Made by a program: the position numbers and the translations under genes. A stretch of 64,000 nt of DNA, taken from Schmidtea polychroa. Lineage: Eukaryota. Positions 26,096 through 63,791 of the stretch are shown here, one piece after another (positions within the stretch are counted from its first letter, which is position 1; every line of letters begins with the position of its first letter). Below the pieces are notes generated by a model that saw nothing but the letters and a program-made list of their open reading frames with translations, was not told the DNA's origin and ran no database searches. The DNA lies in NCBI GenBank assembly GCA_044892525.1, contig CM097886.1:183384312-183448311 (forward strand), read 5' to 3'.

Positions 26096-26176
<81 letters not shown>

Positions 26177-26177
26177 T
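26096..26177. repeat. (ATT)n microsatellite
   Basis: Directly visible; shorter (AAT)n runs near 3620, 23690 and 32570. Confidence 0.95.
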
Positions 26178-32572: not shown

Positions 32573-32626
<54 letters not shown>

Positions 32627-33770: not shown

Positions 33771-34470
33771 CTAAATAAATAATCCAATCAAAATATCCGA
33801 ATCAGCGAATCATTTAAACATCCCCATTCACAAACAGATCATTAAAGCCCTGTGGCAATAAATGGCACTAAAACCGACACTGCAAAACCGCGTACAAAGA
33901 GTAAATAACCGTGAGATATCATGCTAAAGAAATAGTTCAGAAATGGTAAATCTGATCCGAATTGCTAGCCAATGGAATAGCAGATTTGCATTTATTAATG
34001 AATTCTGTCAGTGGAGATCTTCAAATAAATGAACCCGACATTTCAATATTGCATCATTCATTTGAAACATTTACTAAGAGGACTGCATAAAACCTTCCAG
34101 TGCAAGGAATAAATTGCCAGAAAAGCTGCTGGAAAAGCTTTTCATTCATTTTGTGGCGTTACGGAAAATATTTCAAATGGCAAAAGTTATTTCTGTTAAG
34201 ATGTGAAAAAGTGAATTAAAAATAAAATCGATAGCAAGAAAATAGCCAATCAAAAATGCTGAATTTAATGTGAGAAGTAGAGAAATGCAAATTTAAAGGA
34301 AATATTTAACATATCAAAACGTAAACAATATTTGTGATGAGCATCTGGCCTGCACAGGCAATATTCAGTTGCGATTGTTCTGCTTGCACTGTAATTATTG
34401 GCCTGATCTGTTTCACGGTAATTTTGATACAAATGCTATGTAAATATATAATTATTAAATAAAATATTAT

Positions 34471-34890
34471 AGATAACATATCAATATGCTAGGCTTAGCT
34501 GCAATGAATGCCTCGATACCATATAAGGGAACTGCAGCAGATAACATATCAATATGCTAGGCCTAGCTGCAATGAATGCCTCGATACCATATAAGGGAAC
34601 TGCAGCAGATAACATATCAATATGCTAGGCTTAGCTGCAATGAATGCCTCGATACCATATAAGGGAACAGCAGCAGATAACATATCAACATGCTAGGCCT
34701 AGCTGCAATGAATGCCCCGATACCATATAAGGGAACCGCAGCAGATAACATTTGCTGCTCAATACAAAATCAGAAAGCGTATCACCAGTAAATATATCGA
34801 CACCTTCAAATAGCCTCCATCTCACGCGTAAATGGCGCATGATTGGATATTGCAATAATAATAACATCACAAATAATTATTTTCATTGCT
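34471..34890 (+). repeat. Second copy of the 68-bp minisatellite (about 4 units) plus the piggyBac 3' remnant
   Basis: Same unit as 8265-8582, followed by sequence matching about 8615-8750. Confidence 0.9.
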
Positions 34891-35434
34891 TTTAATGAAT
34901 TATTTCCAGTTTAATAATGAATATTATATTATAATTATATTTATTTATTATTTGATAATATGGCAGCGTATGTAAGGCTACTTTATAAAGGTTATTTGCT
35001 AATCAATCGCTTCTGCTTTCGGAGCAAGATATTATATTTGATGGCCCATTGAAGCCATTATGACTGTTGCTGGTAGCAATTGCTATGATTGTTATTGGCC
35101 GTTCTAGTGTTAGTTATCTAAATTAATAAATTATTTGGCTGTCGACAATGCAATTTGCTGCGGCGGCTGATAAAGGGTAAAATCATATGATAATGCTGTC
35201 ACATCGATATTGGCCATATCGGACCAGCAGGGAGCTATTGCATTCTCACCCCGCTAACGGTTCCATTGACACCTCATTCTGTGATCTCTTGCCTCTCACT
35301 AGAGCTCTCTGAGGCAATTCTTAATGGCATTTCATTCATTGCTCCTTATGCAATCCATTTCACATATTCAATTAACCAGATCGCAACTCACCAGATTTAA
35401 TTGATATTTCATTATATAAAATGTTAATGTTTAC

Positions 35435-35838
35435 TTTTGTTCGGCAATTGATTCGGCATTTCCGCTGCAGCAATAATTTCAATATTTCTGAATGCCCTTC
35501 ACTGCATGCATGATGAACTGCTCTCACTCCCTGCAATTTATCAATTAATTATTGATTTGCAATGATTATTAACCAATTTGTCCTCAGATTCCACATCGCA
35601 GTTGCTGTCAAGCAATAACCTGGCAATATCAACAAATCTCTTACGGCAAGCAATGTGAATGGGCAACCAGCCCTGAAATCAGAAACATTAACCCAATAAA
35701 TTCACATTGCCAATCAATCTCACATTAGTATCATCAACAATCCTATGCATAAATTCTCCCCTCAAATTATCCCTGACGCCCTCCACATTTCCACTCATCA
35801 AGTGCTCCTTGAAACATTGAAAATCCCTGCAATGCAAA
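35435..35838 (-). CDS. Ankyrin-repeat gene copy 2, upstream exons
   Basis: GWLPIHIACRKRFVDIARLLLDSNCDVESEDKL and GVRAVHHACSEGHSEILKLLLQRKCRINCRTK. Confidence 0.75.
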
Positions 35839-37559
35839 TTATCCAATGCAAATCACAATCAATATTTCACCCCATCTTGATATTTCCTTTCTGTTTTATC
35901 TATCAATTAATTCCAAAATCAATAAATTTAATTATAATTTATTTAAAAAGTTCAAAATCAATAAATCTAACTTCCTAAAATACAAATAGAAATCAATTAA
36001 AAAGCAGCCAATGAATTCTCAAGGCCAAATTATAAATTTGAAGCGATAAAACAAATCAATTGCAATCAATAATATAATATATAATGGAATTGTCAGACTT
36101 GATAAAATCGATATTCAATATTCAATGAGAGAACCGAACGATCTGACGGATTCCCCCGATGCGGCAATTATTATCAATGATTACAACATTCCAGGCAGCT
36201 GCAAATATTATTATTATTATTCTTTGGTAGCTTTCAAGTAATTTCCAATTATAATTTGCAAGCATTACACAAATGGCTAAATATTATTTTAAATGCTCAA
36301 TTATATCCACTCAAATCCTCATGCTAATAAATAACAATATAAATAACAATTTTATACAAATCATTTAATTGCTTTATAATTGCTGATATTTCATAACATC
36401 ACATATAATTGTTACATAAAATGAATAAATTTATTAATTAAATAATAAATCAAATAGAAATTATATTAATAAATATAAAGTTGAAACAAAAAATTAAACA
36501 TTTGAATAGTTAAAAATTCCAACATAATTATATAAACAAATATACAAAAATATTATAATGGAAATATAATTGCAAAGCACATTAACTGGAAATAATAGTG
36601 CTTAAATCAACAAATGTTTAACAAGAAAACTATATATTCTAGAAATAAAGTATTTTAATTTCAAATATATAATAATTAGTAAGATCGAAAACCAGAACAA
36701 AATTTCATATAAAATTGATGGAAATTGAAATTTGTTAACAGTATCATTGGAAACGGTTTAAACTTGCTGGGTTTAGTAGGCTGACTGGATAAGCTTACTT
36801 TATCCATGGAAACTATCTGGCATTCAGTTACATGAAAGGAATCCGTGACTTGGCAAATCTTGGGCAAATTCTTTTACAAATCTTGGGCTAAAAGCTACTG
36901 TTGCAATCGAAGAGTTTTATAACATCAAGAATGAGACACGTTAGATGAGACATTTATACTCATGACAGTCCAGGTCTACAGCAACAGATTAAGACGAAAG
37001 TTTGGGACATCTAGATCGTCATTGAATCAAGGTTGATTTTCAGATGACACTGAGGGATAGGCCGATTCTTTTCTTTGGTCATTTTGTGTAATATAGATAA
37101 AATATAATAAAGAAAATCAGATTTTTGCCTTTCTACTTGCTAACTGTAAGTCTCAGTAATCAATCTTTACTATTTCTTATTAAGAATAGTTCGTCCTAGA
37201 CTTAAGCTTAATTCAAATTCAACTCAATGCCTTAACTCTTACAACGATTTGAATAGCAATAGTGACTTACTAAATGATATAATTTTTTCCGACATCACTA
37301 TATTTTAAAAATACTTTTCATATTCTCCAATGTTGTCTCAAATCTTTAATTTTCCTTTGTAATATAATTTGCCCAAACATTTGACTCTTTTAGTCTTTAT
37401 TTACCTATAGTTTTGCTCTCATATCCACTTCTCTTTATTTTATTTCCATCCTTCATAAAGAGTGAGGTGATTTACCATGGGTGGTTTATTTTTTGTTTTG
37501 GCATAAAATAAAGTTTCTGTGATATATTAAAAAAGTTTGTAAAATAAACATTTAAATAT

Positions 37560-38760
37560 ATTATAATAACTTAATTATTAAAAGTTTGTATAAAATAAAT
37601 GCTTTTTTGAATTTGATTTTGGAATTTGATTTATTGTTAACCTCTTAAATGGTAATTGATAACATTTTTGTGAACATAATTTTTCAAAGTTTTTCTATGT
37701 CTCACTTCGAATTTGGAATTTCAGTTTTCATCATTATTTACGATCGTCTTACTTCCAAACTTGTATTGTTGGTTTCTGAACTATGACGACATTCCGAGCA
37801 TTTTGAATGCTAAAAATAATTTTTATTTTTTCTTCATGATTCATTAGTGGAGAACACTTCAGATCTATTGCTGGGCAAGGAGATTTTAACCGGTTCTTCC
37901 TTATCAGTTTCATTCATTAAATTGCTTCAAGTTACGATCAAGAACATTTCGCATTGGTACTTTATCTATGAATCCATAAAAACTCGAGGTTTTGAGCTTA
38001 TATGATATCGCTGGCGTAATTACAAGATATTATTCTGCCTTCAATAAGGCTCATTTATAATTATTCATCTGACAATTCAGCTTATATTTCAATAATCATT
38101 TTTCCAATCGTGACAGTAAATAGCTATTATAGCTCCTCGGTTTATAGAGAATTAATTAGTTATCTGCCTAAGATCAAAGATTGAACCATAACTAATATAA
38201 CAATTGTTGGGTCGCTTAGGGGTGTGTCATTCTATTGCTAAAATGTTTTAAGGGTATTATAGGTGTAGAATTGACTCTTTCCTAAACGCCTTCATGACTA
38301 TTGTACTTTAGAACATCTGTGTACCCATGCCGACGACCATGTTGGTGCTCTAAACAATGGTTGAAAATCAATTAGCAGGTGAGCTCTATTGCTAAAACAA
38401 CTCCTCTTTGTATTTTATTCTCGGGTTCTGGACTTTCGATAGAAGTCTAACATTAGTCAGTATCTATCCTCTCGTTAGATTATTGTCATATCTTCATTTA
38501 ACTGTGGTCCTCATTACTACACGTTTTCAAGTGTTATCTTCCAAAATTTGGCGCAGGAATCCGCCTTAATTTTTGTGTTAATAAATGTTGCTCTGTTTTT
38601 CCTGAAATGTTTGTGAATATTTAACTTATTCTTCAAAAATTATATGAGCAGGGATCGTCTCTTATTTCCAAGTTAGTAAAGGTTGTTCTACGCTTCCTAT
38701 GATATTTAAATTATTCTTCAAATATTTCGAGCAGGGATCTGCCTGTATTTTTAGTTCTAA
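37560..38760 (-). mobile_element. Duplicated Gypsy pol remnant
   Basis: Diverged direct copy of about 10460-11530. Confidence 0.7.
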
Positions 38761-44192: not shown

Positions 44193-44997
44193 AGTTTATA
44201 TAGTAAATTTGGTCCAATCAGGACTTAGCTTGTGTGTAAAATAATGTTTTATCCTATTTTTTGTGATTTTTAATCATTTTCTGAGTTATTTGTTTATTTT
44301 TTCTTGCTATTTTATTAAATAATTTAATTTTTTATTTTTCCTCCTATTTTCTGCTTAGTTTTGCTGATTTTTTGGTTTCTAATTTTGATTTAATTTTCAT
44401 TTGTTTCAATTTATAGTTTTTCCTTTTTCTAATATTTATCTCTTTAATGTTATTTTATTCTCTTGATTTTTATTTATTTTTTCCTAATTATTTTGTCTTA
44501 ATTTTGTGGATTGTTAACTAGTTTTGTTTATTTTTGATCTGCTTATTGTTTGATTTATTTTCGTGGTTTTTGTTTTACTCTTTTTATTTTATTGTTTCCT
44601 TTTATTTTTCGATTTTTCTTACACTTGGTTGATTACCCCAATTCCTTTTATACAGGTTTTTTTTAATTAAGTTAATATTTATTATGATTATAAATTTTCT
44701 AAAATTTAATTATTACCGTTTTCAGCCCAACAATAGCTGCATCGGTCAATTCAAAGAAGAACTTCTTACATCGGCAGAAGTGGCTTTTTGCGACCATACA
44801 ATCATGCATTCACACAGCTTTTTATCACGCGATATTGCTGATTCAATATTTTCGGGGTTGTTTACTGATTCCAATATTGCATGAAAGAACAGTTGTGGAA
44901 GTATCAAAATATTCAAAATTTTTAGTAATGTTTTGGCCTCGGAATCGAAAAGAAGAATTTAGGAATAGTTGAAAGATGATATTACATTTTCTGGGAG

Positions 44998-45995
44998 TGT
45001 TGGGGTTCAGTAGGAACCAGAATCAAAAGTTTAGAATAATTACTAAAAATAAATAAAATTAAGATTAAAATATAAAAAGTAATAAATAATTACTAAAAAT
45101 AAATAAAATTAAGATTAAAATATAAAAAGTAATAAATAATTACTAAAAAATAAATACACAATAAAAATAGTAATTAATAATTACTATTAATAGATTTGAT
45201 ATAACTAAAGTCGTATAAATACCAGAAAAATTTCATTGATCGAGGAGGGAAATCGAGATAAGTGAATTTAAGAAGAAACCACAGGAGCTAAATTTAGAGA
45301 GAACAAAACTTCAATCCGATTGGATAATTTCAACAAAAAATCAAACCGATTCTGGAATCTAACTAGTTTAGGAATTTTAACTATAGTCATTGAGCGAGAG
45401 AAAATTAATTGGAATTTTACTTCATTTAAAACTTCTATCCGATTTGGAAAATTTCAAGTGATATTAGATATACCGATCAATAGGAATAAATTTTGAATAT
45501 TCATTCTTTGGAGCCATTTTAGAGAGAGATTAAATTAGTTAGTTTTATCAATTATTTAAATAATTATATTAAGACTTTTTGTTTAAATTAAATTAAACTT
45601 AAATAAGGGGAATAATAGTGTCAGCACGTATTTTGTGTTGTTTCGCTATTAATACTTATTTGAAAAAGAGTTAACCAATTTCTGGGTTGACTCTATCGCG
45701 TAAAATTTGGTGATCTTCCCTATCTTTTTTCCTTTCACTTATATCGGGCTGTTGGCGCATTTAGGGCCAGCCTTGATTCGTAGAAATATTCTTCAGGGCG
45801 GTTTGCATAACCGTTTTCTTTTCTTCAGAGAGCAGCGTGAATAATTTGTACAAATAAACAATCGTGTAATTTTTATCATTAATAAATATTGTAAATCATA
45901 TTTCTTATTTATTACCTATACGCATAAATTATTTATTTGGAGTCAGATAGAACGTTTTTTGTGTTAGTTCGACTACCTACCTATCGAACCTAACA
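44998..45995 (+). repeat. 5' LTR
   Basis: TGTTGGGG...CCTAACA; internal 50-bp tandem duplication at about 45051-45150; I saw one substitution versus the 3' LTR. Confidence 0.97.
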
Positions 45996-45998
45996 TTT

Positions 45999-46016
45999 TG
46001 GTGAGCCCGACGTGAT
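45999..46016 (+). promoter_or_regulatory. Primer-binding site, tRNA-Trp
   Basis: TGGTGAGCCCGACGTGAT, 3 nt after the LTR; 17/18 match to the complement of the metazoan tRNA-Trp 3' end as I recall it (TGGTGACCCCGACGTGAT). Confidence 0.85.
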
Positions 46017-46095
46017 AAAAATTATCAGCGGGTAGATATTGAAATAAAACAAAATAGCGTTAGGAACTAGAGCCAGAGTAAAACTGGATAATCAA

Positions 46096-47716
46096 ATGGC
46101 AGAGGAAGCTAATGTAAATGCATTTGCCAGATATCCCGCTCTGCCCGTAAAGGCATTCAGCGGTGATCCAGGAGAATTCCCCGAGTTTATGTCTGAATAT
46201 TATCAGATGGCCAAAGCATATGCCTATCCAGATAATATCATGATACAAAGGTTACCTATATATTTGAAGGGGCTGGCAAGAGGAAAAATATAACGATATA
46301 ATGGCATTACCAGTTGCTCAAGCACCAAAAACATGGGCGGAAATGAGAGAACAAATGACTGCCCGAATATTGCCCGGAGATGTGGGAAGAATATTTAGAC
46401 AATTTTATCATCGAAAACAGAATGCCAATGAACATGTGGGGGAATTTGCACACCAGCTATCATTAATTGCTGAAAGAGCATTTGGACCAAAAACCACATG
46501 GGCAAAACCTACAGAATTGTTAGTTAAGGATCAGCTATGGGCAGGACTTACTCCTACTATGAGGAACGCTCTAATATTACATACTAGTGATGATTTTGAC
46601 GAATTGACACGGAAAGCTGTCGTAATTGAAAGCAGCTTGGAAAAGTCAACTATGTTCCTGGTAAACAGTGAAAGAACACCGGTGGAGTGTTTCAATTGCC
46701 ATAGAAAAGGGCATATAGCGAAAGATTGTACCAGCAGGAAAAGTATGGACAATCGCAAAAGTATACAATGTACCAAATGTGGACGGAATAACCACGGTGC
46801 GGAAAATTGTAGAGTGCAGAATTTGCAATGCGAAAAATGTAAACGTAAGGGACATGTTGCTGCGGTCTGCAAGACTAGAAGTCCTCAGAACAGCAATAAT
46901 TTTAGTACAATTAAAAGAGATGATGTAAATTCATCAGGAAAGATAAAATGTCACGGATGTGGGAAATTCGGACATATGATGAGGTCATGTCCTCAGAATC
47001 AGAGTGGAAATACGGGTCAGTTCAATAAAAATACCGATAAGGGTAATGTGAACAAGCCTAAGACAACTTTTATGGTTAACCAGGATCAAGGGTTAACTTA
47101 TCTGCAACAACTGGAAATGGAAATCCATGAGGAAAAGAATAGGTTGGCTAGATTAACCGACCAAGAAGGTACCATCTTTATGGTAGAAGTTGGAAGAGAT
47201 GAATTTCTCAGAAAAAAGGACTCCGTTAGGGAGGACCTTCAGGAAACGGAATCAGAGGAGAGTTCCGATGATGAACCTAGTATGGCCACCATACCAAGCG
47301 AGTTCGATAGAACCTTGCCAGGGAAAGCAAAGGTAAAAGAAGGGTCAGATACCCTAACAAAATGTTTAAAACTGGTGGATTCCAGATATGAGTACCAGCA
47401 GAAGCTGGCCAGACAATTGGGAAAATTGGGAGAAACAGAAATTAAAATTCATGAAATAGATACAGTAGTAAAACTGATATCGCAGGTCGAAGATGATCCA
47501 AAGTATCATAACAACACGTACAAAATCCTAAGGAAATTAGGAAAACTCTTGGAACGTGAGTGGGATCTCCAAGATGCCCAGCTCAATATAAAACTCCCAC
47601 AGGATAAAGAGTATAATCTCGATATAAATGTAAGAAGTCGAGCCGATAAATTAACGGAAGCATTGGCAAGTACTAAGCATCAAGGATATACTTATACTTA
47701 TGTGGAACAAAACTAG
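46096..47716 (+). CDS. gag: Gag (capsid-like region + 4 CCHC knuckles + helical extension), frameshifted at about 46285
   Basis: FSGDPGEF..LPIYLKGLARGK joins YNDIMALP if one A is removed from an A5 run; knuckles CFNCHRKGHIAKDC, CTKCGRNNHGAENC, CEKCKRKGHVAAVC, CHGCGKFGHMMRSC. Confidence 0.9.
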
Positions 47717-49197
47717 AAGCAAATCAAACACTTCTACAGAACGGGATACTCCCAGGTAGAGTGACGAAGCTCACAGCAAAGAGAGCACAGAAGCCAGTAG
47801 CAGTAATGGATCAAGATAGCGTATTCTTGATTACTCAAATGGAAATAGAGAGTTTGGAAGAAACTCAACAATTAACCCAGCGACTAGGGTTGGAACTGCA
47901 GAAATCCCCACGAGATGGAGAAACTATAAAGGAAATACTTGACTGGATGTTAGTATTACGAATACCAGTAGATTTGTTGGAAGCAATAATTCCACTTATA
48001 CTACCAGTAGTAAAGGAAACAAGCCCATTCCAGACGCAAATTGAAGCGCTGATGAGGAAAAATGGGAAAGCTATCCGAAGTCAGCCTGATAGACAAGGCA
48101 ACATTAATCTAGACGTGCGAATGATGGGAAAAGAACCATTAACAATGATTTATAATTGTTATATCAAGGTTAAAATATTGAGGAGAGATGTAATTGCCAC
48201 CGATCAAACTACAGGTATATTCCTGATAATGGTTCATGGCAGGCAAGTGGATGATGATGAATATCTAGTGGATGTGGGTTGTCTACCGTTGGCAACAACC
48301 ACGGTAATGATCATCCCGGTAACTCCACCCGAGTCCCAATGGTCATTAATGAGACTGCCAGATATAGCAAACGAAATTGCGGAAGAAATCGAGGAAATAA
48401 GACTAGAGGAAATTAATCCCTGTCAAATGGTGGACATTGACGAGGAAGATTACTTCTCAGAGTACGTCAGATTAAATCCAGGAGAAACAAACATAGGAGC
48501 TACTACGTCACAAGCTATAACAAATCCGGAGACTGAAAAACCTCCGGAGAAAGTGAAAAAAGATGGACGAGGACGTCCCAGAAAGGATCAAATGAAACCT
48601 TCACCCAAGGAGCAGTTAAATCCGGAAACGATTCGGAAAATTCAGTTAAAAACATTAGCAGGGATAGCTCAAGAAATGGACGACCAGGCGGGAGATGAGA
48701 CATCGTCAGAAAGGTCGTTATTGTGGCAACGTATACAACAAATGATCGGGATTATCAGGCCCGAATGGAGAATTCCAAAAACCAAGGGGATCGAAGTTAA
48801 GAAGATAACAAAAGAAGTCAAAAAGACAATGGATAGGATATCCAAAGATGTATCAACAGGAGATATTCAGGATACCATAGAAGCATTCGTACAGCAAGGA
48901 TTAACAAGAGGGAAAGTGTTAACATCGCTATCATTGTTAATTCAAAATGCCTTAGCCCGAGTAGGGGACGATAAAAAGCTTATAGAACGAGAAATCGATC
49001 AAGTAGTCGAAATGGTAGATTATTACCTGGAGGTATGGATGACCGTAAACAAATTTTGGGAAAAGGAAATTATTCCAAAACCACGATATGAAGTCATGGA
49101 AGAAGCCATAAATAATGGTAGTTCAGGCACAGGAAACATGACAAGCATGATCCTGATGTTTCTAGTAATGATGGGCATATTAAAACAAACAAATTCA
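47668..49197 (+). CDS. Unknown element-encoded protein with an AT-hook, ending in a signal-peptide-like segment
   Basis: Open frame of about 510 codons; GRGRPRK at 48565-48585; hydrophobic MILMFLVMMGIL at about 49147-49182. Confidence 0.65.
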
Positions 49198-50060
49198 TTA
49201 ACAGTATTTGACTGTGGAAATCTCGGGTATATTCGCTAGTAGATGCAATTGAGTGCAAAGAGGCGTATCCCGAGAAGGTTCATCAAGGGGAAAAGGTAGA
49301 ATATTACGTCTACCAGGAGAGTGAATTTTATAGAACCACGATAAAGGAATGTAGAGTTCAGAGGGCTACATTTGAATATTATTGCGGTAGTAATAGCTAT
49401 TCTGCTTTTCTGTCCGCAACATTAATACCAAGGCCGGTAAACATAATGCCCGAAGATTGCTTAGATGCATTTCGAAAAGGAAGTCTGAGGATAGACAACG
49501 AGGTATCAATCTCAGCAGAAACTGGGAAAACATTGGGAATAACAATCACTCGAGGAGGAACAATTGCCTCAGTTGGAACCTGCGAAGGAAGAAAGAAAAT
49601 TCGCGGTAGCAATTTAGTTTCCTATGTGGTAGACATAGAAGATTACTCAGTAGAGCTACGAGAATACGAGGGAACATACTCCCGACGATATCGAGGAAGC
49701 AAGAAGGACATTGCTATTCCCACAAATCAGAGACAGAGGTATCACGGAAATTATAAGAACAATTTATCATGAGAGCTTAATACGACCAGATTACAATTTA
49801 TTATTTAGACCGGAACACTATAAAGAAGCAGAAAGAACGTAATGATGAAAATATGGGGACGATTCACCAATTTTGGTATTTTCGTCGCGGGATGTTCAGG
49901 AATTTACGCAATATTTGTAATTTTAAAGCTGATAATTACACAACTGATGTCAACATATAGCATATTCAAAATTGGAGGATGGTCATGGAAACTGCTATTA
50001 GGACTATGTCCTATGTGTGCAGAGTTTGCATTATTCAAACATCACAGAAAGGAAATTAAA
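49198..50060 (+). pseudogene. Chuvirus-like viral glycoprotein (env-like), internally deleted and frameshifted
   Basis: N-terminal LTVFDC..YSLVDAIEC..YVYQESE..KECRV..YYCGSNSY..C..GTCEG, then in other frames TPDDIEEARRTLLFP..KIWGRFTNFG..IYAIFVILKLII..GGWSWKLL. Both ends follow the Cys and TM pattern I recall for chuviral glycoproteins. Confidence 0.75.
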
Positions 50061-50329
50061 GAAATTAGACAGAAACATTTGGTCAAGCATGAAGTAATTG
50101 GAACAGAAATGGAAGAGTATTCTAGTTATCGGGACGATAACAATTCAAAGGGAGGAGGTAATGGAGGCTCTCGTGAAACATCTTCAAGATCAAATCAATC
50201 ACGAAAACAGAACTACAACAAAAAACCGAGTCAGCAACAAAGAAAATCGAGATTTAAGGAATATCTTCCTCCATATGACCAATCAAAGGAAATCTATGTG
50301 AGAAAACAGTCCTCAGAAGGAGAATATGA

Positions 50330-53300
50330 CAGTTCCGACCAAATATTCGACATAAGGTCACCCAGATTCAAGAAAAGCCCAAGATATGTACAATTGCCAA
50401 CTTTGAGGAGTTTACCACCCCACCAAACGAGAGGCGGGAACGCTCAAAGGAAACAACACTCAGAACAGGACGACACCAATGGAAAATCGGTGAAGATACC
50501 ATATTTAATAATCTGACATGTTCAACATTGCCAGAATTACCTAAAGTGCACTATCCAAAGGAAGCGTTAGAATCAATTAAAGCTAAATTTAAAGAGTATA
50601 ATCCTCAACTGAGTGATCCTGAATTACTGGAAGCAGAACAAACGAGAGCCAATACAATCGGTATCTCGTACGATACTATCTTGATGGTCAATAACCCAGT
50701 GAATTTGGATAAAAAGCCAATGATAAAAATAAGAGTGAACCGACATACAGTTAATGCGGTGATAGACTCAGGAGCAGATGGTACCATAATAGAAGCTAAA
50801 TTGTTAAACCATCATGAACTGCAGTCGCTAAAACCGGCAGGAGTAAAATTAACAGGAGCAAACGGATCATCATTAAACGTAATAGGGTCATTATCCTGCC
50901 AGATTAAGCTATGTGACCAGGAGCTCCATCACGACATCATAGTAATGAGAAGTCTCCCAGCCGAATGTCTATTGGGTATGGACGTTCTAAAAAGACTACG
51001 AGGAGTAGTATTCGATTGTGCATCTGGATTGTTAATCCGAGCACGAGGTAAAAAGAGAAAAATTTACAACGATGATACAGCTTATATAGATCATACAACT
51101 ATCATACCACCCAGAGCAGAAACAGTATGCTTTGTAGCTACAAGCAATAATTGGGAAGGGGAAGTTGTATTTGAACCAGACGAAAGATTTTCGGAGAAAT
51201 ACAATATACCAGTTACGCATAGCGTTGGTTTAATAGTCAATGGCAGAATACCAATCAGGGTAGCCAATCTGGACATTAAACCACTGTACTTATATCCAGA
51301 TACCAGAGTGGGCAGAATCTGGAAACAAAACGAACCACAAGCCACGAGAGAAGGGTCGATACTCACCGTAAAGGCAGAAGAAAGAGATCCAGACATTGAG
51401 TACTATGATGCTCCTACAGCAAATAGCAAAGTGCTAACCAGAAAGGAAAACATTCAAGTAAATATGCTGTTGAGGAAATATGACCAGGTATTCGCGAAAC
51501 ATGAATACGATCTGGGAAAAACAAACCTGCTAGAACATGAGATCGTTCTTACCAATACAAAACCCATAAAATTGAGACCATACCGTATTCCTTTCAGTCT
51601 GGAGGAATCAGTTGATAAACAGGTGAAATTGATGTTAAAACATGGCATAATCAGACATAGTAAATCACCATATCAATCACCAATGATAGTGGTGGCCAAG
51701 AAGGATGGATCAGTACGATTATGTAACGACTATCGCATGGTTAACGAAGCAACATGCAAAGATAGCCATCCATTGCCATTGTTAGATTATATCTATGGAC
51801 GCATGAGAAACGCTAGGTTCTTCTCAGTAATGGACGCTCAAAAGGGATTTTATCAAATTAAGTTAAAAGATGAGACTATACCAATAACAGCGTTCTCTAC
51901 CAGTATGGGTCATTACAAATATAACGTAATGCCATTTGGACTCACAGGAGCTCCAGCCACATTTCAAAGAGCAATGAATTTGATGCTCATGGATGTACAC
52001 CATGCGATGGTATACATTGACGACGTCATAGTATTTTCGCCAGATTTGGAAAAACACTTGGAACATTTGGAAGATGTGTTCAAGAAGTTGATCAATGCTA
52101 ACATGAAAGTAAAACCAACCAAATGTAAATGGGCCGAACCAGAAGTGGTATATGTTGGCCATATTATATCACGAGACGGGGTTAAACCCGATCCAGCTAA
52201 TGTTGAAAAGGTTAAGAATTTTCCAGAGCCTAAAACCGTTAAACATATCAAAGGGTTTTTAGGCTTAGTTGGATACTATAGAAAATTCATTAGAAACTTC
52301 TCGGTTATAGCCTTTCCACTTACGCAGTTAGAAGGCAAAAACGTCAAATTTGTGTGGGGAACAGAACAGCAGGAAGCATTTGATATGCTCAAGGAAAAAC
52401 TCGTCAAGCCACCTATATTGCGATTTCCAGACTTTGAGAGACAATTTTTGGTTATGACAGATGCCAGCACTCGGGGCATAGGTGCTGTGTTAGGTCAGAG
52501 AGATGACCTAGGAGATGAGTATGCAATTGCATACGCTAGCAGAGGATTAAAACCGCACGAAAGAAACTACGCAGTGATAGAACTAGAGGCTTTAGCAATT
52601 GTATATGCTATAACCCAGTTTAGGACATATCTATGGGGTCGAAAGATTATAGTGTACACCGATCATAGACCGTTACAGTGGTTGACGAAACACACAATGG
52701 ATACATCAAAACTGGTCAGATGGGCATTAATTTTACAGCCATATGACATAGAAATCCATTATAGAAAAGGAGATCATAATGGAAATGCAGACGCTTTATC
52801 GAGAATGGACCAGGAGGAGGAAGCAGAAGATGTGAAGGAAGGACGTCTCGAAGGGACTATCTTCACACTGACTCGAGAAGCCAACCGGCTAGCTGATTTA
52901 ATGGAGGCACAAAAGGCTGGCGAAGAAATCAATGTCATTCGACAAGCCTTGGAAGCAAAATACGTGCCCACAGAATTCACGAAATACTGGGAAAAGAATA
53001 AAGATAAGTTTGTGCTGGAGGAAGGATTGGTCAAATATTCCGATGTAAGAGACAATGTTATAATGGTCCCTAAGAAATACCGTGAAGCACTCATGTTGCA
53101 GTATCACGATGGAGCCTTAGGAGGCCACCTGTCATCCAGAAAAACATTGTCAAGGTTAAAACAAAAATATTTTTGGCCCGGCATGAAACAAGATGTTAAA
53201 ACCTGGTGTCAGACATGTAAGATCTGTATCACCAGAAGAAATACCGGAAAGAAACCACACGTGCCTTTGAAGCCGATGCCAGTACCATCTACGCCTATGG

Positions 53301-55189
53301 AGATGACAGCAATGGATGTGTTGGGGCCATTTAAAGAATCCAATAGCGGAAACAAGTACATATTAGTTTTCTGCGATTACTTGACTAAGTGGCCAGAAGC
53401 CTACCCGATGCCTAATCACAAAGCTGAAACAATAGCTAGAATTTTCGTTGAACAAATTGTCTTTAGGTATGGAGTACCTACAAAGCTATTAACGGATCGG
53501 GGAGCTGATTTCATGAGTAATTTGCTCAAAGGAATAAACGATTATTTCGGAGTTTTAAAGTTGAACACTTCCCCATATCACCCACAGACGGATGGGCTAG
53601 TAGAGCGGTTTAATGGAACATTAGCTAATATGTTAGCATCATATGTAAATTCAGGGCAAACGGATTGGGATATCCACATTCCATCCTGTTTATTTGCATA
53701 TAGAAATGCAGTACACGAAGGAACAGGTGAAACACCATTTTACCTAATGTATTTGAGACAAAGTAAAATGCTCATAGATCTGTTGTTTTTTCCGAAGGCC
53801 ACACAATACTTGGATCAGGAAAATTATCTGATGGAAATGAGGGAAAGAATGCAGGAAGCATGGGCTAGAGCGGGTCTCAGTATAAAATATAATCAGGAGG
53901 CATCCAAAGACTATCATGACAGAAAAGCCAAGGATCATGGCATATCGGTTGGAGACCAAGTGATGTTGGAAAGTCATTACAATAAGAAAGGCTTATCACC
54001 AAAGCTCATGCGAAATTTCAAAGGGCCATACGAGGTATTGAGAACCACAGATACAAACCTCATATTACAACTAGTAGCCAACAGAAAAGCAGAACCAATA
54101 ATGGTGCATGCTAATCGGTGTAAAAAGTGCGAAATCTCAACAAAAGGAACCTCGGGAAATTCAAAAGTAAAAGCACCAGAGAAACAAGCGAAACTAAACA
54201 CTACCGAAGAACCACAAGAGCACCGATACCCATTGAGATCACGGGGTGTTCCAAAATCGGTAACCTTTTTGTTGATAATAAGCTGTATGATGACTTTAGC
54301 AATGGCAAAAAGGGATAGAAAGGCATATTTTCAGCCTATGGCGATGCAAGTAGAGCATTTACATTTTATAAGGACATACCACGGAATTAGCATACTCACG
54401 ACGTGCGATAATGCTACAAAGTTCAATTTACATTTCTACAACAGGTACTTGCGGATCCGCCAACTCGATTCAGAAGACAAAGAGTGGGAATTATATGATT
54501 TAAAAGCAGAGACGGATTATAAACTGCATATCGCAGCGTCACGGTTATATCGGAATGGTTGGTATACCTATCACGTATCAAATTGGATCCTACGGACGGC
54601 AGATTTCACAAATCGCATATCGATTTCCTACGAAAGGGATAAAGTAAAGTTTAGCCAGCAAATTAACAGGGAGGAGAAAGTGAAAATCAGCATTCTAGAC
54701 GGATCAACCACGAGAGGAACATTATGGTTAGACCAGAACTCTCCCTCCCAAGAAATGTATCTAAATCAGTCAGTAAAATATTCGGTTCTAGTTATATACT
54801 ATAGTCCGAGGAAACGGGAAGACGATAGGTGGTTCGAGGTATTTGAGGAGATTCTACCTCTGAAACAGCCGGTTATAACGAAAATACCACCAAAAGTAGT
54901 CAGAGAGAACATGGTGATACATCCCGAAATGTGGCAACATCTTAGACAATTGTCACCTATCAAACAAATATTTTGTCAAACGCCCCCAAACCTGACAAAC
55001 TGTTGTGATTGTAATGCCATCACAAACTTTAATGCAGGATATATCCTGAAAATACCCGTAGGGGTATGGATTACGGTATCGGCCGTACTATCGCTAGTAA
55101 CTACACTGATAGCTATGGGTATTTGGACCAAGCTATATTTTAGACAAGCCATAAGAGCTTACGATGGAGTACTGATGTCGCAATTATGA
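50330..55189 (+). CDS. pol: Pol (PR-spacer-RT-RNase H-integrase) with a C-terminal membrane-protein extension
   Basis: The frame is open from 50330; VIDSGA (DSG 50765), YIDD (52013), MTDASTRGIGAVL, HHCC zinc finger, MDVLGP..TDRGADF..YHPQTDGLVERFN, and RYPLRSR at the integrase end. Confidence 0.97.
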   Translation, partial: QFRPNIRHKVTQIQEKPKICTIANFEEFTTPPNERRERSKETTLRTGRHQWKIGEDTIFNNLTCSTLPELPKVHYPKEALESIKAKFKEYNPQLSDPELLEAEQTRANTIGISYDTILMVNNPVNLDKKPMIKIRVNRHTVNAVIDSGADGTIIEAKLLNHHELQSLKPAGVKLTGANGSSLNVIGSLSCQIKLCDQELHHDIIVMRSLPAECLLGMDVLKRLRGVVFDCASGLLIRARGKKRKIYNDDTAYIDHTTIIPPRAETVCFVATSNNWEGEVVFEPDERFSEKYNIPVTHSVGLIVNGRIPIRVANLDIKPLYLYPDTRVGRIWKQNEPQATREGSILTVKAEERDPDIEYYDAPTANSKVLTRKENIQVNMLLRKYDQVFAKHEYDLGKTNLLEHEIVLTNTKPIKLRPYRIPFSLEESVDKQVKLMLKHGIIRHSKSPYQSPMIVVAKKDGSVRLCNDYRMVNEATCKDSHPLPLLDYIYGRMRNARFFSVMDAQKGFYQIKLKDETIPITAFSTSMGHYKYNVMPFGLTGAPATFQRAMNLMLMDVHHAMVYIDDVIVFSPDLEKHLEHLEDVFKKLINANMKVKPTKCKWAEPEVVYVGHIISRDGVKPDPANVEKVKNFPEPKTVKHIKGFLGLVGYYRKFIRNFSVIAFPLTQLEGKNVKFVWGTEQQEAFDMLKEKLVKPPILRFPDFERQFLVMTDASTRGIGAVLGQRDDLGDEYAIAYASRGLKPHERNYAVIELEALAIVYAITQFRTYLWGRKIIVYTDHRPLQWLTKHTMDTSKLVRWALILQPYDIEIHYRKGDHNGNADALSRMDQEEEAEDVKEGRLEGTIFTLTREANRLADLMEAQKAGEEINVIRQALEAKYVPTEFTKYWEKNKDKFVLEEGLVKYSDVRDNVIMVPKKYREALMLQYHDGALGGHLSSRKTLSRLKQKYFWPGMKQDVKTWCQTCKICITRRNTGKKPHVPLKPMPVPSTPMEMTAMDVLGPFKESNSGNKYILVFCDYLTKWPEAYPMPNHKAETIARIFVEQIVFRYGVPTKLLTDRGADFMSNLLKGINDYFGVLKLNTSPYHPQTDGLVERFNGTLANMLASYVNSGQTDWDIHIPSCLFAYRNAVHEGTGETPFYLMYLRQSKMLIDLLFFPKATQYLDQENYLMEMRERMQEAWARAGLSIKYNQEASKDYHDRKAKDHGISVGDQVMLESHYNKKGLSPKLMRNFKGPYEVLRTTDTNLILQLVANRKAEPIMVHANRCKKCEISTKGTSGNSKVKAPEKQAKLNTTEEPQEHRYPLRSRGVPKSVTFLLIISCMMTLAMAKRDRKAYFQPMAMQVEHLHFIRTYHGISILTTCDNATKFNLHFYNRYLRIRQLDSEDKEWELYDLKAETDYKLHIAASRLYRNGWYTYHVSNWILRTADFTNRISISYERDKVKFSQQINREEKVKISILDGSTTRGTLWLDQNSPSQEMYLNQSVKYSVLVIYYSPRKREDDRWFEVFEEILPLKQPVITKIPPKVVRENMVIHPEMWQHLRQLSPIKQIFCQTPPNLTNCCDCNAITNFNAGYILKIPVGVWITVSAVLSLVTTLIAMGIWTKLYFRQAIRAYDGVLMSQL

Positions 55190-55387
55190 CAATTACAGAC
55201 TCCCCCGAGGGAAAAATCATATATAAATATTTATATATATCTTAAAATCTATATTTACGTAGAGCTCCAGGTAGCATTAAAATTCAGCATATGTAGATCT
55301 TTTATAATAAGACTCATGCATATCCTTTTAGCCTATTATGGCATATCAGTATATCTGATATTATGGTTAATGATTTTTATTTCAGGA

Positions 55388-57472
55388 ATGCAGAGCCATC
55401 CAATATCCCAATACCAAGGAAGGCATAGCATTATACGTGCTACGACCTTGCTAAAGGAAAAACTTATTTACAAAAACCTGGAGAAGCAGGTTATGGAGCA
55501 AGGTAGAAAAGGCCAAAGGCACTGGTTTTACGGTCATTGTTCAGGCATACCCAATAATTTCAAATTTTACGAGGCTCCAAAGCGTCAAATGATTATCTCC
55601 AGAATCCCGGGTAAGCATAACGGTAGTATTAGGCTTACCGAGGTCATGCCTGAGTTTGGTAGACATAGTCTGACCAACCACCTGTGGATACACGCCATTA
55701 ACAAACCAATTACGGTTTACGTTCCTGGCGCCACAAACCCTATTTTGCTACAAAAGCACACTACCCTCGAAATAGAAAACGGGGACGGAAGGGAAAAGAA
55801 CATCTCACTGTTATGTGAAGGTATAGATACCATCATAGCAATGGAAATCCTGGAACCTCACAGAGAAGCACAAACAAGATGGGTTAATGACCCAAACTGG
55901 ACATATAATGTCAACGATAACGACATTAAAACATTTAAGTCCTTTGTTCGACAGTGTTTGGACCTAGAGGATAACTTCACCATTTTCGTAGCAGCTCACT
56001 ACGCTACACTACGACAATTCCTGAAACCGGCAATTGTGGCCATTTCAATCTCACATTTCAATGGCGATTTGATACTCAACACGAGAGTCACCCCCAGAGC
56101 ACAGGTCAAACATTACCAATCGCATGCGCATGGTATGACCGAGAAAGAAATAATAGGACAGTTCGACGGAGAAGACTGTGCCGAACGAATCAGGAAAATC
56201 TGCGATGGGAAAATCATCGTGGGATTGCTAGTAAAGGACCTACTAGAAGTTATTAGATTCCCAATGCAGCGCGCTCTCGGAATCCGTGAGTTAGGCGCAG
56301 CTAAATGTCTCGAAAGTAGGGACCTAAAGAAATGCAACGGGTATTACCGTTTGGCATATTTGGCAACGGCAGTCACCGGTAAAGAAGCACATCACTTCTC
56401 GGATCTTCAAACGGAGAATGATGTAACTACCATCAAGGAGATTTACGATAATCTACGAGACATCTGGGTCGACGACATTTCACCGGACACCCGGAAAGAG
56501 GTGGTGTCTTCACAAATCAAGCAGATGGAACCCGGTACCTCAAGCAGGCAGAAACCATTAGCTATGGAGAGCTATGTGAAAGAAGATATCCCCAGGACGA
56601 AGTTGCTGAAAATAGTGGAAGAAGATTCCTTGTCGCCGCCAGCCATTTCAATTGCTGATGAAGACGACTATGCCACTTGTGAGAGTGCAGACGATAACTG
56701 CCTCCAAGTCACCCTTACCAATGACGGTAGAGTGGTGAATTCGGCTAAAATGGAAGTAGAAAAACCCCAGCCAGCAGAAAAGTTAGTTGAACGGGTCACC
56801 AAGATCCTGAAAGCGTTGGCCCCGTTGGGTGAACCCAAACACGGAGCCGAAGGAGGATCATAACCGCAAGTTGTAGCTCCATTACTTAAGTTACAAGACT
56901 TGAAGTTTAAAAAGAAAACAACGGAGAAACCCCCCCAGAAAGAGGACAAGGAGAAAAATGTTCCTACCTCTACAAAGAGGAAAACGGAGATTCCTAAGAG
57001 CACGAAAAAGAAGATGCCTAGGATATCCATCCAAGATGAGGATGACGATCTCCTAGAAACCCACTATCAGCCACCAGATCCTGCGTTGACCAAGATATTG
57101 GCAACAAAGAGTGAACCCACGATTTCAGGAGAGCCTATTATCGTAAAGGAAGGCGAGTTCGTCGGAAGGGGCAATTCAATCAAAATACGGTAAGACCTCG
57201 ACAGGGAAGATCCTAGTTGGTGGCAGAGACCCGACAGCAAATGGAAACCGCGTATCACGGAATACGACGGAGGCCCAATCCATGAACTAGCCGTATCCAA
57301 TTTCCCCGACTACGGAGTATTGGAGGCAATTGAGGGCTCATATATAATCTCCTCAATTGTGTACAAAGAGGTAAGTACACGGGAGACTTTGGTGGTCAGT
57401 TACAGACCTGACATTGTAGAACAAAGGATCCGTAACGAAAGTGCCAAGGTCATGAAAAGGAGAAAATACTAG
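55388..57472 (+). CDS. 3' accessory ORF with a degenerate DEDDh (REX4/ISG20-like) exonuclease domain; two in-frame TAA stops
   Basis: The same frame runs 55388-57472, broken only by TAA at 56861 and 57191; IVAISISHFNGDLILNTRVTP..HYQSHAHGMT..GKIIVGLLVKDL..ENDVTTIKEIY; strong acceptor TTTTATTTCAG 2 nt before the ATG. Confidence 0.65.
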
Positions 57473-57770
57473 CAATTCGGCTATGTGTTCAATGGACCTA
57501 GCAATTTGCTATACGTCCTCAATCCCAACACCTTCGACAACTCAATCCAATCCAGATATTCAAATTGATAGACATTATGAACAACATTTGATTAATCTGA
57601 TTTTTAATTTTGTTTAACAATCTTTGATTATTTTGATTTTGATTTTGATTACTTTATGTATATACATTTTATTCAGTTGTTTTATTTTATTTTTATATTT
57701 TTATTTTTTATGTATTGGCTGCAAATTGTCTTGTCCTTACCGCTTTATTTTCGGGACGAAAATCTTGTTA

Positions 57771-57781
57771 GGGGGAAGACA
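57771..57781 (+). promoter_or_regulatory. Polypurine tract
   Basis: GGGGGAAGACA abuts the 3' LTR and is preceded by the hairpin TTTTCGGGACGAAAA. Confidence 0.85.
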
Positions 57782-58779
57782 TGTTGGGGTTCAGTAGGAA
57801 CCAGAATCAAAAGTTTAGAATAATTACTAAAAATAAATAAAATTAAGATTAAAATATAAAAAGTAATAAATAATTACTAAAAATAAATAAAATTAAGATT
57901 AAAATATAAAAAGTAATAAATAATTACTAAAAAATAAATACACAATAAAAATAGTAATTAATAATTACTATTAATAGATTTGATATAACTAAAGTCGTAT
58001 AAATACCAGAAAAATTTCATTGATCGAGGAGGGAAATCGAGATAAGTGAATTTAAGAAGAAACCACAGGAGCTAAATTTAGAGAGAACAAAACTTCAATC
58101 CGATTGGATAATTTCAACAAAAAATCAATCCGATTCTGGAATCTAACTAGTTTAGGAATTTTAACTATAGTCATTGAGCGAGAGAAAATTAATTGGAATT
58201 TTACTTCATTTAAAACTTCTATCCGATTTGGAAAATTTCAAGTGATATTAGATATACCGATCAATAGGAATAAATTTTGAATATTCATTCTTTGGAGCCA
58301 TTTTAGAGAGAGATTAAATTAGTTAGTTTTATCAATTATTTAAATAATTATATTAAGACTTTTTGTTTAAATTAAATTAAACTTAAATAAGGGGAATAAT
58401 AGTGTCAGCACGTATTTTGTGTTGTTTCGCTATTAATACTTATTTGAAAAAGAGTTAACCAATTTCTGGGTTGACTCTATCGCGTAAAATTTGGTGATCT
58501 TCCCTATCTTTTTTCCTTTCACTTATATCGGGCTGTTGGCGCATTTAGGGCCAGCCTTGATTCGTAGAAATATTCTTCAGGGCGGTTTGCATAACCGTTT
58601 TCTTTTCTTCAGAGAGCAGCGTGAATAATTTGTACAAATAAACAATCGTGTAATTTTTATCATTAATAAATATTGTAAATCATATTTCTTATTTATTACC
58701 TATACGCATAAATTATTTATTTGGAGTCAGATAGAACGTTTTTTGTGTTAGTTCGACTACCTACCTATCGAACCTAACA
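57782..58779 (+). repeat. 3' LTR
   Basis: 998-bp direct repeat of 44998-45995. Confidence 0.97.
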
Positions 58780-60662
58780 GGAGTACCGATGCTTTGAATA
58801 AAGGAAATGTTAAACGTTTCCTATAGTCTTGCAATATTTTACCAAAGTAAAAGCTATACAAAATGTTCTATATGGATGAAGTTAGACAATGGTTAATGAA
58901 CAGAAAAGAGCAACAATTTTACGACTCAATAGCAAGAACAACATTATAAAAATGAGATAATGATTCTGCCATAAAAGATTTGAATTAGAAGAAATAATTG
59001 AACGATTTAATATTTGCAATATTGATAAAGATATTTTATTCAAAGAAATCCATAAATTAAATTATTTTATCAACACAGAAAAACTAAACACCAAAGAAAA
59101 AGGTACAAAAAAATTGACAATTATACTTTATTTAATGAAATATATAATGAATATCTTTCCGAATCAGTTTTCGCCGAAAATAATCTTTCCAAAATCATGC
59201 TATTTAAATGTTTTTGTAGCATTTCAAATCTATTAACCGATGGTTTTTTGATTTGATTGTTATCCAAAACCGCTCAAAATATTGAGTATGAATGTTGTTA
59301 TCATCACAATTGACCCCTAATATAGTTGAGGTCTGATAAGCCGTTATACTCACACCATTCTTTAGTCATGATCGAATTTCCTTCTAACACAATCATGGCA
59401 AGTTTCTCTCGTACCATTAACAAAATCGAACATTTTTAGTTCTTCTACAAAATTCCAAATTATTCAGTATTTTTTCCTGTATTACTAATGCCTTTTGCAT
59501 CTCGACGTGAAATCAGATTTTGTTTTTCAATAATTTATTTACTTTTGATTTTATTTTTGTTATTTTCATTTATATTCGCTAGATAGTTGTATTACTGCCA
59601 TTCAGAGCAGTTCTACTGAGACAATTTTGTTTAAATTTTAAACCTTTTTTTACAGTTTAAACCCCCCCCCCGAGTTTGGGTTGAATTCTTCACTGCCCTG
59701 GTTTGGGTTGTGGGGCCCATTGATCAATTTCGCAGTCTACAAATCCTATCTACATTTATTTACAGGCTAGCAGCAGTGAACACACAATCTTACTTCTTAC
59801 TGAAGGTCTGTTAATTGTTCGCAACTTATTTTACTAGATACAATCTGCTTTTGTTGAAGTTGAGTAAGACATTGACAGCCATTCGAAATTACCTTTATCT
59901 GTTTTTAAATCTTTAATTTTATGTTCTGAATAAAAAATAAGCTCCTAAGAAGCAACTTTCTTAAGTTTTAAGCTGCATGCTTTTATAAGATCATTGAGCA
60001 TAATATTTTGACAGCACCAACTATCACAATTTCCAGCTTGTAATATAGTAAAACAGAAGTTTTCAATCCTTTTTAGCAGCGGAGCAATATTTTATATTTT
60101 TCGCTAATACGGAGCCTCAATATTAAAATCATCTTCAATTTCGATAACTTTTCACTTTATTCCACTTCCTCAGATTTGCGCATTTTCCCATTTCGTGTCT
60201 GACTGTACCCTTTTACAGTTCTGTTTTTACCATAGCATTCTTTGCATTGCTTCTCTGCTTGACCGCCATTAAATTTCGGTTTTCCTTTTAATCTGAACTA
60301 TATAATTTAATAATTTATTTTTAACACCTCAAAAGTTTAAAGAGCCTTTAGGAACTTTCCGAGTTGCACACATCGAAAACCTGCATTAAATGAAATAAGT
60401 TTCCTGAGATTTGTAAAGCCATTGCCAAAGCCGCCAAATATCAAAAATAACAGCCAACATTTAATCAATAAGCACAGTAAAATCAATAGATTTAACAAAA
60501 CAAACTGAATATTTATTACCACATCTGCCAAATATATTTAAATATATAATAAAATCAAAATTACTAATAAATGCAATCTGCCGAACGAGGAAATTATGCT
60601 TTATTAGGAACGCTATGTAAATACTAGTTGCTAGGCAACAAAGAATAAATCACAAAATTTTA

Positions 60663-61494: not shown

Positions 61495-63327
61495 CAATGC
61501 TTTATCTAGATCTAATATTTATAATATTAATTATTAAATTGCCCAAAAATCATTGTGAAAAGTAAAGGCAATTGTTAGATTATTGTGAAGATAACTACAT
61601 CGGAAGACGTCGAAAAAGAGCTAATCCTGTCTTTGTTTCTCATGTTTGGAGTGCATACAGTCGTTGAAGGTTATAGCGTTGAATGATGGCATCAATAAAT
61701 GCAAGCTGTGATAATACTTCAAAAAAAACAATCATTTCTGAATGTGCTAATAAAGTTTANNNNNNNNNNNNNNNNNNNNNNNNNNNNNNNNNNNNNNNNN
61801 NNNNNNNNNNNNNNNNNNNNNNNNNNNNNNNNNNNNNNNNNNNNNNNNNNNNNNNNNNNNNNNNNNNNNNNNNNNNNNNNNNNNNNNNNNNNNNNNNNNN
61901 NNNNCAGATAATGTCAGGGGGTAAATAATGAGGGGGTAATATCAGGAGGGTAAATGATCAGGGGGTAATATCAGGAGGGTAAATAACGAGGGGTAATGCC
62001 AGGAGGGTAAATGATGAGGGGTAATTTCAAGGGGTAAATGATGAGAGGGCAATATCCTAGACACGGTTTAGTCAAGACAAGCATAAATTACAAAGATAAA
62101 TGGAGAGTATCAAAAGAAATGAGAAAGCAAAAAATTCGGAAATAACTTATTCACAGCGAAAGGTTGTCCAATGATAATAAAATATAATTTAATTATTTAT
62201 TATTATTATGATTAAATAATTTCTTGGTATCAGCATGAATTTAATATTAAACAAATCAATATTTTGCTGTAAAATCTTTCTTGAGAAAAATTCCGATTCT
62301 AAAATAATAAACGCATGAAAAAGCAATAATAATAATAATAAATCAATTATTATTATCAACCAACCGATCAGCCGCTCAATGTCATCCAAAATAATCACGC
62401 TGGCGGGTGCCTTGAGGGCGTCATCGAATATCTGAATGAAGCAAAATAATCATCCAAAAAATTTATCAATTCGCTTAGACACCTTTTTGATAGCGAGACA
62501 ACGAGCAGGCTCACTGAACCCGATCATGTTCCTCATTGAGCACATCCGAATGAATGTGAACCCGGTTTGCTTGGCCAAGTGGACGGCAATCGATGACGTT
62601 CCTGCAAGCGGCTCTCCATATATTAGCAACCGCTTTCGGCTGATATTCTCATTGGTCTTTAGGCTTTCGATCAATAATCCAGCTGTTGCGAGTGCTTTGG
62701 AGATTTCCGGGCTCCATTTTAGCAGCCGATTCTCCTTGAATTCCTGCAAATCGTCGTCGTGTCGTCCATAAAGCTGTAACAGCGAGAGATAAAATATCGA
62801 CAATATTAATAAATCCCGATTACCGCTTTCACGTCGTGCTCAATAGCAAAAATGAAATGCTGCCGATTTATTTTGAATGATTGCAAATCTTCTATCCGAA
62901 TCGCGATTCCCTTTTTCGGCTAAACCAATGGGTAAATTGTGCTACAATTCAATGATGAGCAGCAGCGGCTTACGTCGAATTTCTCGTCTTGCGCGTTCGC
63001 CAATGCCGCCATGACAACTGCCTCGATTTCGGCCCCACTGTAATTTTTTGTGAGTGCTGCCAATTCTTTCAAATCAACATCTTCGGCCAATATCTTTTTG
63101 TCGCGCAATTTCTTCGTATGGATCTCGAATATTTGATGCCGGCCGTGCTGGCTGGGTAACGGAACCTCAATCTGGACCCCCATGCGACCCGGTCGCAACA
63201 ATGCCTCATCAATCATATCTCGTCTGTTTGTCATGCCGATAATCAATATGTTATTCAGTTGCTCAACTCCATCGATTTTAGCGAGCAGCTGGTTGACAAC
63301 GGTGTCTTGCACAGCTGATCCGCCTGT
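60663..63327 (-). CDS. NSF: Divergent NSF/Sec18-like vesicle-fusing AAA+ ATPase, last 8 exons
   Basis: Exons 63327-62974, 62919-62824, 62773-62483, 62431-62365, 61226-61147, 61097-60898, 60848-60788, 60731-60663 join in frame; [79 protein letters not shown]. Confidence 0.92.
61407..61491. repeat. (TA)n microsatellite in an NSF intron
   Basis: Directly visible. Confidence 0.95.
61760..61904. other. Assembly gap (N run)
   Basis: 145 N. Confidence 1.
61905..62068. repeat. G-rich short tandem array (AGGGGTAAATGATG / AGGGGTAATATCAGG-like units)
   Basis: About 9 alternating 14-15 nt units next to the gap; resembles a transposon subterminal array. Confidence 0.7.
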
Positions 63328-63791
63328 CTGGATCCAACAAGTTCACATTTTAATAATCACTTCATATTATCAATAAAAAAATAAAATATTTTCAAATATC
63401 AATAATAATAACCAATGACAATTATAATCAAATATTGATTTTTTTGATTTTGACAATTTTAATAAAATTAAATTATTAAATTATTATTCAAATATGGATT
63501 TGTTTATTTTGCAAATAGAATGATTACGTTAATTAAAAATAAATTAATCATAATTTAAATATTATTAAATTAATTAATTTTTTATTCATCTTTAAATAGT
63601 CAAATATTGATTTATTTGATTTTGACAAAATTTAATAATTAAAAATAATTAATATTTATTAAATAAATAATTTAAATATTCAAATACGGATTTGTTTATT
63701 TTGCAATGATTACATTAATTAAAAATAAATTAATGATAATTTAAATATTGATTTGTTTATTTTAACAATACATAGAATTAAAAATTAATTA

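Follow-up and report, generated by a model that had tools for sequence, protein, structure and literature searches.

A disabled Gypsy element of Schmidtea polychroa with a chuvirus-type glycoprotein gene between gag and pol very probably belongs to the GAG-ENV-POL errantiviruses of planarians

We hold it very probable that the env-like sequence in a 64,000-nucleotide stretch of Schmidtea polychroa DNA (the whole of which is henceforth referred to as 'the window') is what a deletion and frameshifts have left of the gene in a single young and disabled copy of a Gypsy element that is present many times, that the least damaged copies of this element have a chuvirus-type glycoprotein in frame with gag and pol, that the glycoprotein is likely a class III fusogen, and that the family belongs to the published GAG-ENV-POL (Burro-related) errantiviruses of planarians. 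The element occupies window positions 44,998-58,779 (13.8 kb, + strand) and has the following features:

44994..44997 (+): target-site duplication, 4 bp, with the right copy at 58780-58783
44998..45995 (+): 5' LTR, 998 bp, TG...CA, differing from the 3' LTR at one base
45999..46016 (+): primer-binding site, complementary to the 3' end of tRNA-Trp of the same genome
46096..46990 (+): gag, with a capsid-like part and CCHC knuckles; the window copy has a frameshift near 46,280
47579..47790 (+): putative first ubiquitin-like domain, frameshifted near 47,690 in the window copy
48100..48325 (+): putative second ubiquitin-like domain, a weak assignment from a pattern seen by eye and an alignment
48715..49070 (+): predicted divergent Bcl-2-like domain
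49138..50040 (+): env, with a predicted internal signal, the start of a likely class III ectodomain, a large internal deletion near 49,675 and a membrane anchor
50723..50995 (+): aspartic protease (PF13975)
51695..52744 (+): reverse transcriptase and RNase H, Ty3/Gypsy type
53066..54050 (+): integrase, with H2C2 finger, core and GPY-like motif
54254..55189 (+): in-frame second membrane protein, with a predicted signal, a possibly FN3-like ectodomain, a transmembrane helix and the tail S-Q-L
55316..57472 (+): ORF2, a 761-aa frame in sister copies, with two stops in the window copy
57768..57781 (+): polypurine-tract-like stretch, by its sequence
57782..58779 (+): 3' LTR

All the marks of an LTR element, i.e. 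TG...CA LTRs, target-site duplication, tRNA primer site and polypurine tract, are present, and the two LTRs are identical at 997 of 998 bases. A contig of the public run X6 skips 13,786 bases, which corresponds to the element plus one copy of the target site; since this contig joins the flanks without the element, the insertion is polymorphic. The primer tRNA of these elements is the tRNA-Trp(CCA) encoded by a tandem gene array with a 284-bp period at G000:C4 from 55,022,433 (loci L102 and L103). The 3' end of this gene has 821 matches genome-wide, with 99 of the 100 matches listed falling in the array, and ~990 further matches of a shorter tRNA-Trp motif are likely primer sites. Elsewhere, the window holds one or more older, decayed Gypsy elements without an env match (24,100-37,900 and 2,800-11,500 (-)), with long direct repeats, a 68-bp tandem array and a reverse transcriptase/RNase H piece 45% identical to that of the 13.8-kb element, as well as host exon(s) of an AAA ATPase, NSF-like by eye (62,450-63,342 (-)), and of an ankyrin-repeat protein (16,034-17,232 (-)).

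Pfam searches place gag, region X (the ubiquitin-like and Bcl-2-like part), env, protease, reverse transcriptase, RNase H and integrase in this order along the element. The best PDB match of the reverse transcriptase is Ty3 (E 4e-80, the next PDB family following at 1e-49), and Pao-specific Pfam families gave no match at E 0.1 in either the window element or a sister. With its PR-RT-RH-IN order and Ty3-like reverse transcriptase the element is a member of Ty3/Gypsy (Metaviridae), as a reading of the letters alone (henceforth the sequence-only reading) had proposed.

The env remains start with the ATG of a hydrophobic stretch at 49,138, followed by F-D-C; the motifs S-L-V-D-A-I-E-C, E-C-R-V and Y-Y-C-G and two further cysteines (49,458 and 49,581) lie in the next frame, and a hydrophobic anchor extends over ~49,851-50,037. 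These are the signal-like stretch, cysteine pattern and C-terminal anchor upstream of protease that the sequence-only reading had described. The signal was judged by eye and is conserved in 5/5 aligned relatives; the stretch, which is short, was not picked up by a 19-residue hydropathy scan (threshold 1.6). Frameshifts lie near 49,220 and 49,830. Both pieces of env match PF24664 (Monjiviricetes_fusion) above the Pfam cut-off, the N-terminal one at profile positions 37-187 (E 2.9e-14) and the C-terminal one at positions 534-615 (E 3.2e-12). Because 29 of 29 sister loci examined (the top-scoring ones, selected by their env match) have 929-954 additional bases at this point, the profile gap in the window env is a deletion of ~950 bases. 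All 29 also carry region X upstream of env, and in one unaltered natural sister gag, X, the whole of env, protease and reverse transcriptase share a single frame, with env matching PF24664 at E 2.4e-87. The chuvirus-like glycoprotein and the gag-X-env-pol order that had been read from the damaged copy were recovered, with an undeleted gene, in its sisters.

A search of the genome (G000) with the env piece yielded 2,073 candidates, 150 of which were scored. Of these matches 102 were 77-100% identical, four of them in open frames of 3,366-3,369 aa, and 48 were 68-71% identical (family 2), with 11 of the latter lying in 3,513-3,516-aa frames; the PF24664 search added two more families, a third, whose frames are 3,334 aa long, and a fourth. 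The undeleted length of the window's family is ~14.7 kb. Thus the family has intact open reading frames and multiple copies, and the window copy itself is broken: gag, X, env and the stretch preceding protease are all frameshifted, ORF2 contains two stop codons, env bears its large deletion, and this copy cannot make env. None of its eight lesions was common to any of the 5 to 35 sister loci covering each site. A mobile, non-autonomous subfamily of the deleted form was considered and rejected, since the deletion junction was spanned by the window copy alone (40 scored of 253 candidates) and the deletion was found in 0/35 fetched loci, some of which overlap the same copy. At a related element (L046:1694-3970 (+)), a 759-aa frame, hAT transposase-like by eye, is inserted at the 3' end.

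Strong purifying selection acts on env, with 118 synonymous and 14 non-synonymous variants (pN/pS 0.03; here and for region X below, pN/pS is taken from counts, uncorrected for mutation bias, of variants common to at least 2 of 28 copies against one natural copy). A model of the sister ectodomain (mean pLDDT 88, 91 sequences) is strand-rich and contains a central helix of 48 residues. Searching PDB with the env sequence alone gave no match; a profile of the sister-ectodomain alignment had herpesvirus gB as its top PDB match (E 0.002, covering only ~75 residues), and it is this profile match that suggests a structural likeness to gB. A profile of six env sequences matched 2,154 proteins at E 0.001. 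The top matches were long polyproteins, in which env was followed by protease in 8 of 11 scanned and in 3/3 from a separate search for longer proteins. Next came stand-alone proteins of ~650-690 aa at 18-25% identity. Among the ten best of these that were looked up, two were named chuvirus glycoproteins (Tacheng tick virus 4 and Wufeng shrew chuvirus 2), which are thus the closest named stand-alone relatives, two were clusters with insect-genome proteins and six had no informative name. Four public relatives (P0004, P0007, P0008 and P0018) have two or three protease domains per polyprotein, one of them behind integrase, and an env-pol polyprotein of the same kind filed under Flavobacteriaceae bacterium (P0011) probably comes from animal DNA that entered a metagenome bin.

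How did env come to lie in this element? That a viral fragment was inserted secondarily into the window copy only, or that env is an artefact of the assembly, is practically negligible as an explanation. Such an origin could draw on the three places at which the window env is broken, but env is present in 29/29 sisters chosen by their env match and in three more families, and it is the breaks, not env, that are private to the window copy; the sister comparison proposed with the sequence-only reading thus places env as a family trait. The near-identical LTRs sit oddly with so many breaks, and some of the single-base breaks may still be assembly errors, or the parent may already have been damaged, though env itself is shared by the family. 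We consider it highly improbable that the glycoprotein was captured anew, independently and recently from a chuvirus, founding an undescribed family of endogenous viruses. The chuvirus glycoproteins as closest named stand-alone relatives would agree with this, as would a FastTree tree in which a single clade (local support 0.996) unites the 18 env sequences taken from long proteins, set among 30 stand-alone glycoproteins; this tree is midpoint-rooted, its stand-alone set is drawn from the top of the match list and so biased, and 3 of the 18 long proteins had no pol domain shown. Against it, env and RNase H-integrase identity vary together across five elements (rho 0.69, 10 non-independent pairs), and since env divergence tracks pol divergence, the capture would be old and shared; the data fit one old env capture rather than a recent one. 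The window env is also ~66% identical to that of Smed_errantivirus_4, the closest listed element (86/130 residues, ungapped, counted by eye), and the GAG-ENV-POL design itself was published in 2019 (PMC6431247) and in 2026 (PMC13524379). The sequence-only reading's suggestion of a new enveloped family and an unreported capture accordingly falls away. That the glycoprotein was captured independently from a negative-strand RNA virus, as that reading also suggested, is compatible with the env tree, which leaves direction and date unsettled. A scan of viral contigs found no relative.

Region X, upstream of env, probably contains two ubiquitin-like domains and a Bcl-2-like domain, as judged from evidence at the level of the family. 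For the first ubiquitin-like region, PF00240 was matched below the cut-off in related families (E 0.0011 and 0.0018), and a Pfam search of the window's own family gave no match. The second matched UBX at E 0.2 in family 2 and at E 0.006 in P0006, and its pN/pS is 0.08. The Bcl-2-like region (pN/pS 0.16) gave nothing useful in a single-sequence PDB search, but a profile of five relatives matched BOK (E 3.8e-5) and Bcl-xL (E 2e-4), and Bcl-2-family chains made up 59 of the 60 PDB matches listed for this profile. PF00452 was matched in relatives at E 0.0093 and 0.00096, both under the cut-off, and the domain of the window's family has no usual BH1/BH2 letters. Matches to picornavirus 2B, 14-3-3, centrin and GCN5 were weak and were taken as chance.

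Two proteins follow integrase. The first, of 312 aa and in the same frame as integrase, begins with a hydrophobic segment, continues into a body rich in strands and carries a single transmembrane helix ahead of a short tail. It was assigned to no family by profile searches of Pfam and PDB. Its FN3 likeness comes from atlas scores of 0.86-0.88 and from a Foldseek comparison of its model (pLDDT 49), which returned tandem FN3 domains at a best E of 8e-5 with TM scores of only 0.2-0.3, and we treat it as a lead. The tails in three families are S-Q-L, T-E-V and T-R-L, which we take to fit the class I PDZ-binding pattern. The second protein, ORF2, has a hydrophobic N-terminus and an ISG20L2/REXO-like DEDDh domain at ~55,976-56,450 (profile against ISG20L2, E 1.2e-9; atlas RNase_T 0.92) from which most catalytic residues are absent. 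It lacks the D-x-E, D, H...D set of an active DEDDh enzyme: families 1 and 2 have neither the acids of motif I nor the histidine of motif III, and both are present in the related locus L046 (L046:7768-9000 (-)). The third family showed no such exonuclease-like ORF in the stretches examined. Both the post-integrase protein and ORF2 are under purifying selection (pN/pS 0.13 and 0.04, respectively; 20/20 copies examined). Neither was found in the searched literature; Repbase entries and the Grohme 2018 supplements may describe them.

From this order of domains we infer the topology and cleavage of the polyprotein and the particles and infectivity that may follow from them. One polyprotein would be made that crosses the ER membrane four times. 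Gag, the two ubiquitin-like domains and the Bcl-2-like domain would remain cytosolic, and the internal signal would thread the env ectodomain into the ER; once cut, this signal may stay as a tail anchor of the Bcl-2-like piece, so that uncleaved Gag would be tethered to the membrane. The env anchor would bring the chain back to the cytosol for protease, reverse transcriptase, RNase H and integrase, and the second signal and its helix would display the FN3-like surface protein. Particles carrying env trimers could then bud and enter neighbouring cells, by which stem or germ cells might be reached; there, reverse transcription primed by tRNA-Trp, followed by integration that duplicates 4 bp of the target, would give rise to new copies.

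The step in which env trimers fuse budded particles with neighbouring cells is, in our estimation, probable. It is rather unlikely that env is instead kept for an intracellular or touching-cell role, for instance in tethering assembly to membranes or in fusing cells with one another, in elements that form no free infectious particles. Selection on env is evidence of function and not of infectivity, and a single frame would yield gag, env and pol in equal amounts, whereas retroviruses do not make the three in equal amounts. PMC13524379 treats transmission by env outside Drosophila as an open question. However, the full ectodomain, its cysteines and its anchor are conserved with virus glycoproteins at 19-25% identity, as would be expected of a working fusogen. 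Beyond a fusing env, we put forward as possible, if doubtful, that the compact planarian elements are endogenous viruses capable of infection and equipped with a set of accessory proteins not yet described: the polyprotein would supply a Gag tethered to the membrane, a Bcl-2 mimic that blocks cell death, a class III fusogen and an FN3-like attachment protein with a PDZ-type tail, and a separate membrane-anchored, catalytically dead ISG20L2-like protein would shield the element RNA. The headline gag-env-pol arrangement is already known and the window copy alone adds little; what interest remains attaches to the two proteins encoded 3' of integrase, which lie outside the env coordinates. The family is young, with ~100 copies, and purifying selection acts on its env, Bcl-2-like, FN3-like and exonuclease-like parts, which makes it a handle on the question, raised in PMC13524379, of whether, beyond Drosophila, such elements owe infectivity to a gB-type env. 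If the parts act as attachment protein, death blocker and RNA shield, the life cycle would be more virus-like than that of any described Gypsy lineage.

The closest described systems are planarian. PMC13524379 (Chary and Hayashi, eLife 2026) catalogues GAG-ENV-POL Gypsy elements with gB-type env in flatworms, nematodes and bryozoans, among them six from Schmidtea mediterranea (Smed_errantivirus_1-6; HSV/gB-type env, configuration C1a), reports chuvirus-type env adjoining gypsy pol in arthropods too, and finds GAG-ENV-POL elements not to be monophyletic. As they are presented there, Smed_errantivirus_1-6 share with the window's family a Gypsy pol, multiple copies and a homologous gB-type env between gag and pol, and their listed spans are 14.5-18 kb compared to ~14.7 kb for the undeleted family. 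The window's family is nevertheless a separate one, and the window copy is disabled. The window element has a tRNA-Trp primer site, whereas the primer site is listed as 'none' for the Smed_errantiviruses in PMC13524379, and exonuclease or accessory ORFs, present in the window element, go unmentioned in the main text of that article. The Burro section of Arkhipova and Yushenova 2019 (PMC6431247) describes giant planarian Gypsy elements (Burro/GYPSM1) with one polyprotein, in which gag with CCHC knuckles is followed by ubiquitin/SUMO-like and BCL2-like domains, an in-frame env matching mononegavirus glycoproteins and then PR-RT-RH-IN. Ubiquitin-like and BCL2-like domains thus precede an in-frame env in both, with the matches in the window's family being weak or profile-level. 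Burro as described in that section exceeds 30 kb, has a polyprotein of 4,873 aa (~3,370 aa in the window's family) and carries MATH, BIR, ankyrin and dUTPase-like domains, of which the 13.8-kb window element has no Pfam match; the post-integrase membrane protein and the exonuclease-like ORF2 of the window's family are unmentioned in the Burro section. Given the small size and the absence of MATH, BIR, ankyrin and dUTPase matches, the window element is Burro-related and not Burro. The nematode endogenous retroviruses of Sacco et al. 2022, reportedly (going by the title) metaviruses with env ahead of pol and a glycoprotein captured from an RNA virus, resemble the window element in gene order and come from another host phylum. 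Anakin elements (Dezordi et al. 2020, PMC7642597; PMC10084718) reportedly carry a Chuviridae glycoprotein, i.e. one of the same family, but on a BEL/Pao backbone, whereas the window element has a Ty3-like reverse transcriptase and no Pao-type pol. Finally, the bdelloid LTR elements Juno and Vesta, as outlined in parts of PMC5408684, are Gypsy-type and, like the window element, have a 3' ORF for a DEDD-family exonuclease; theirs (ORF3) is of the DEDDy type, with its residues intact, and replaces env, whereas ORF2 is of the DEDDh (ISG20L2/REXO) type, is degenerate and stands beside env.
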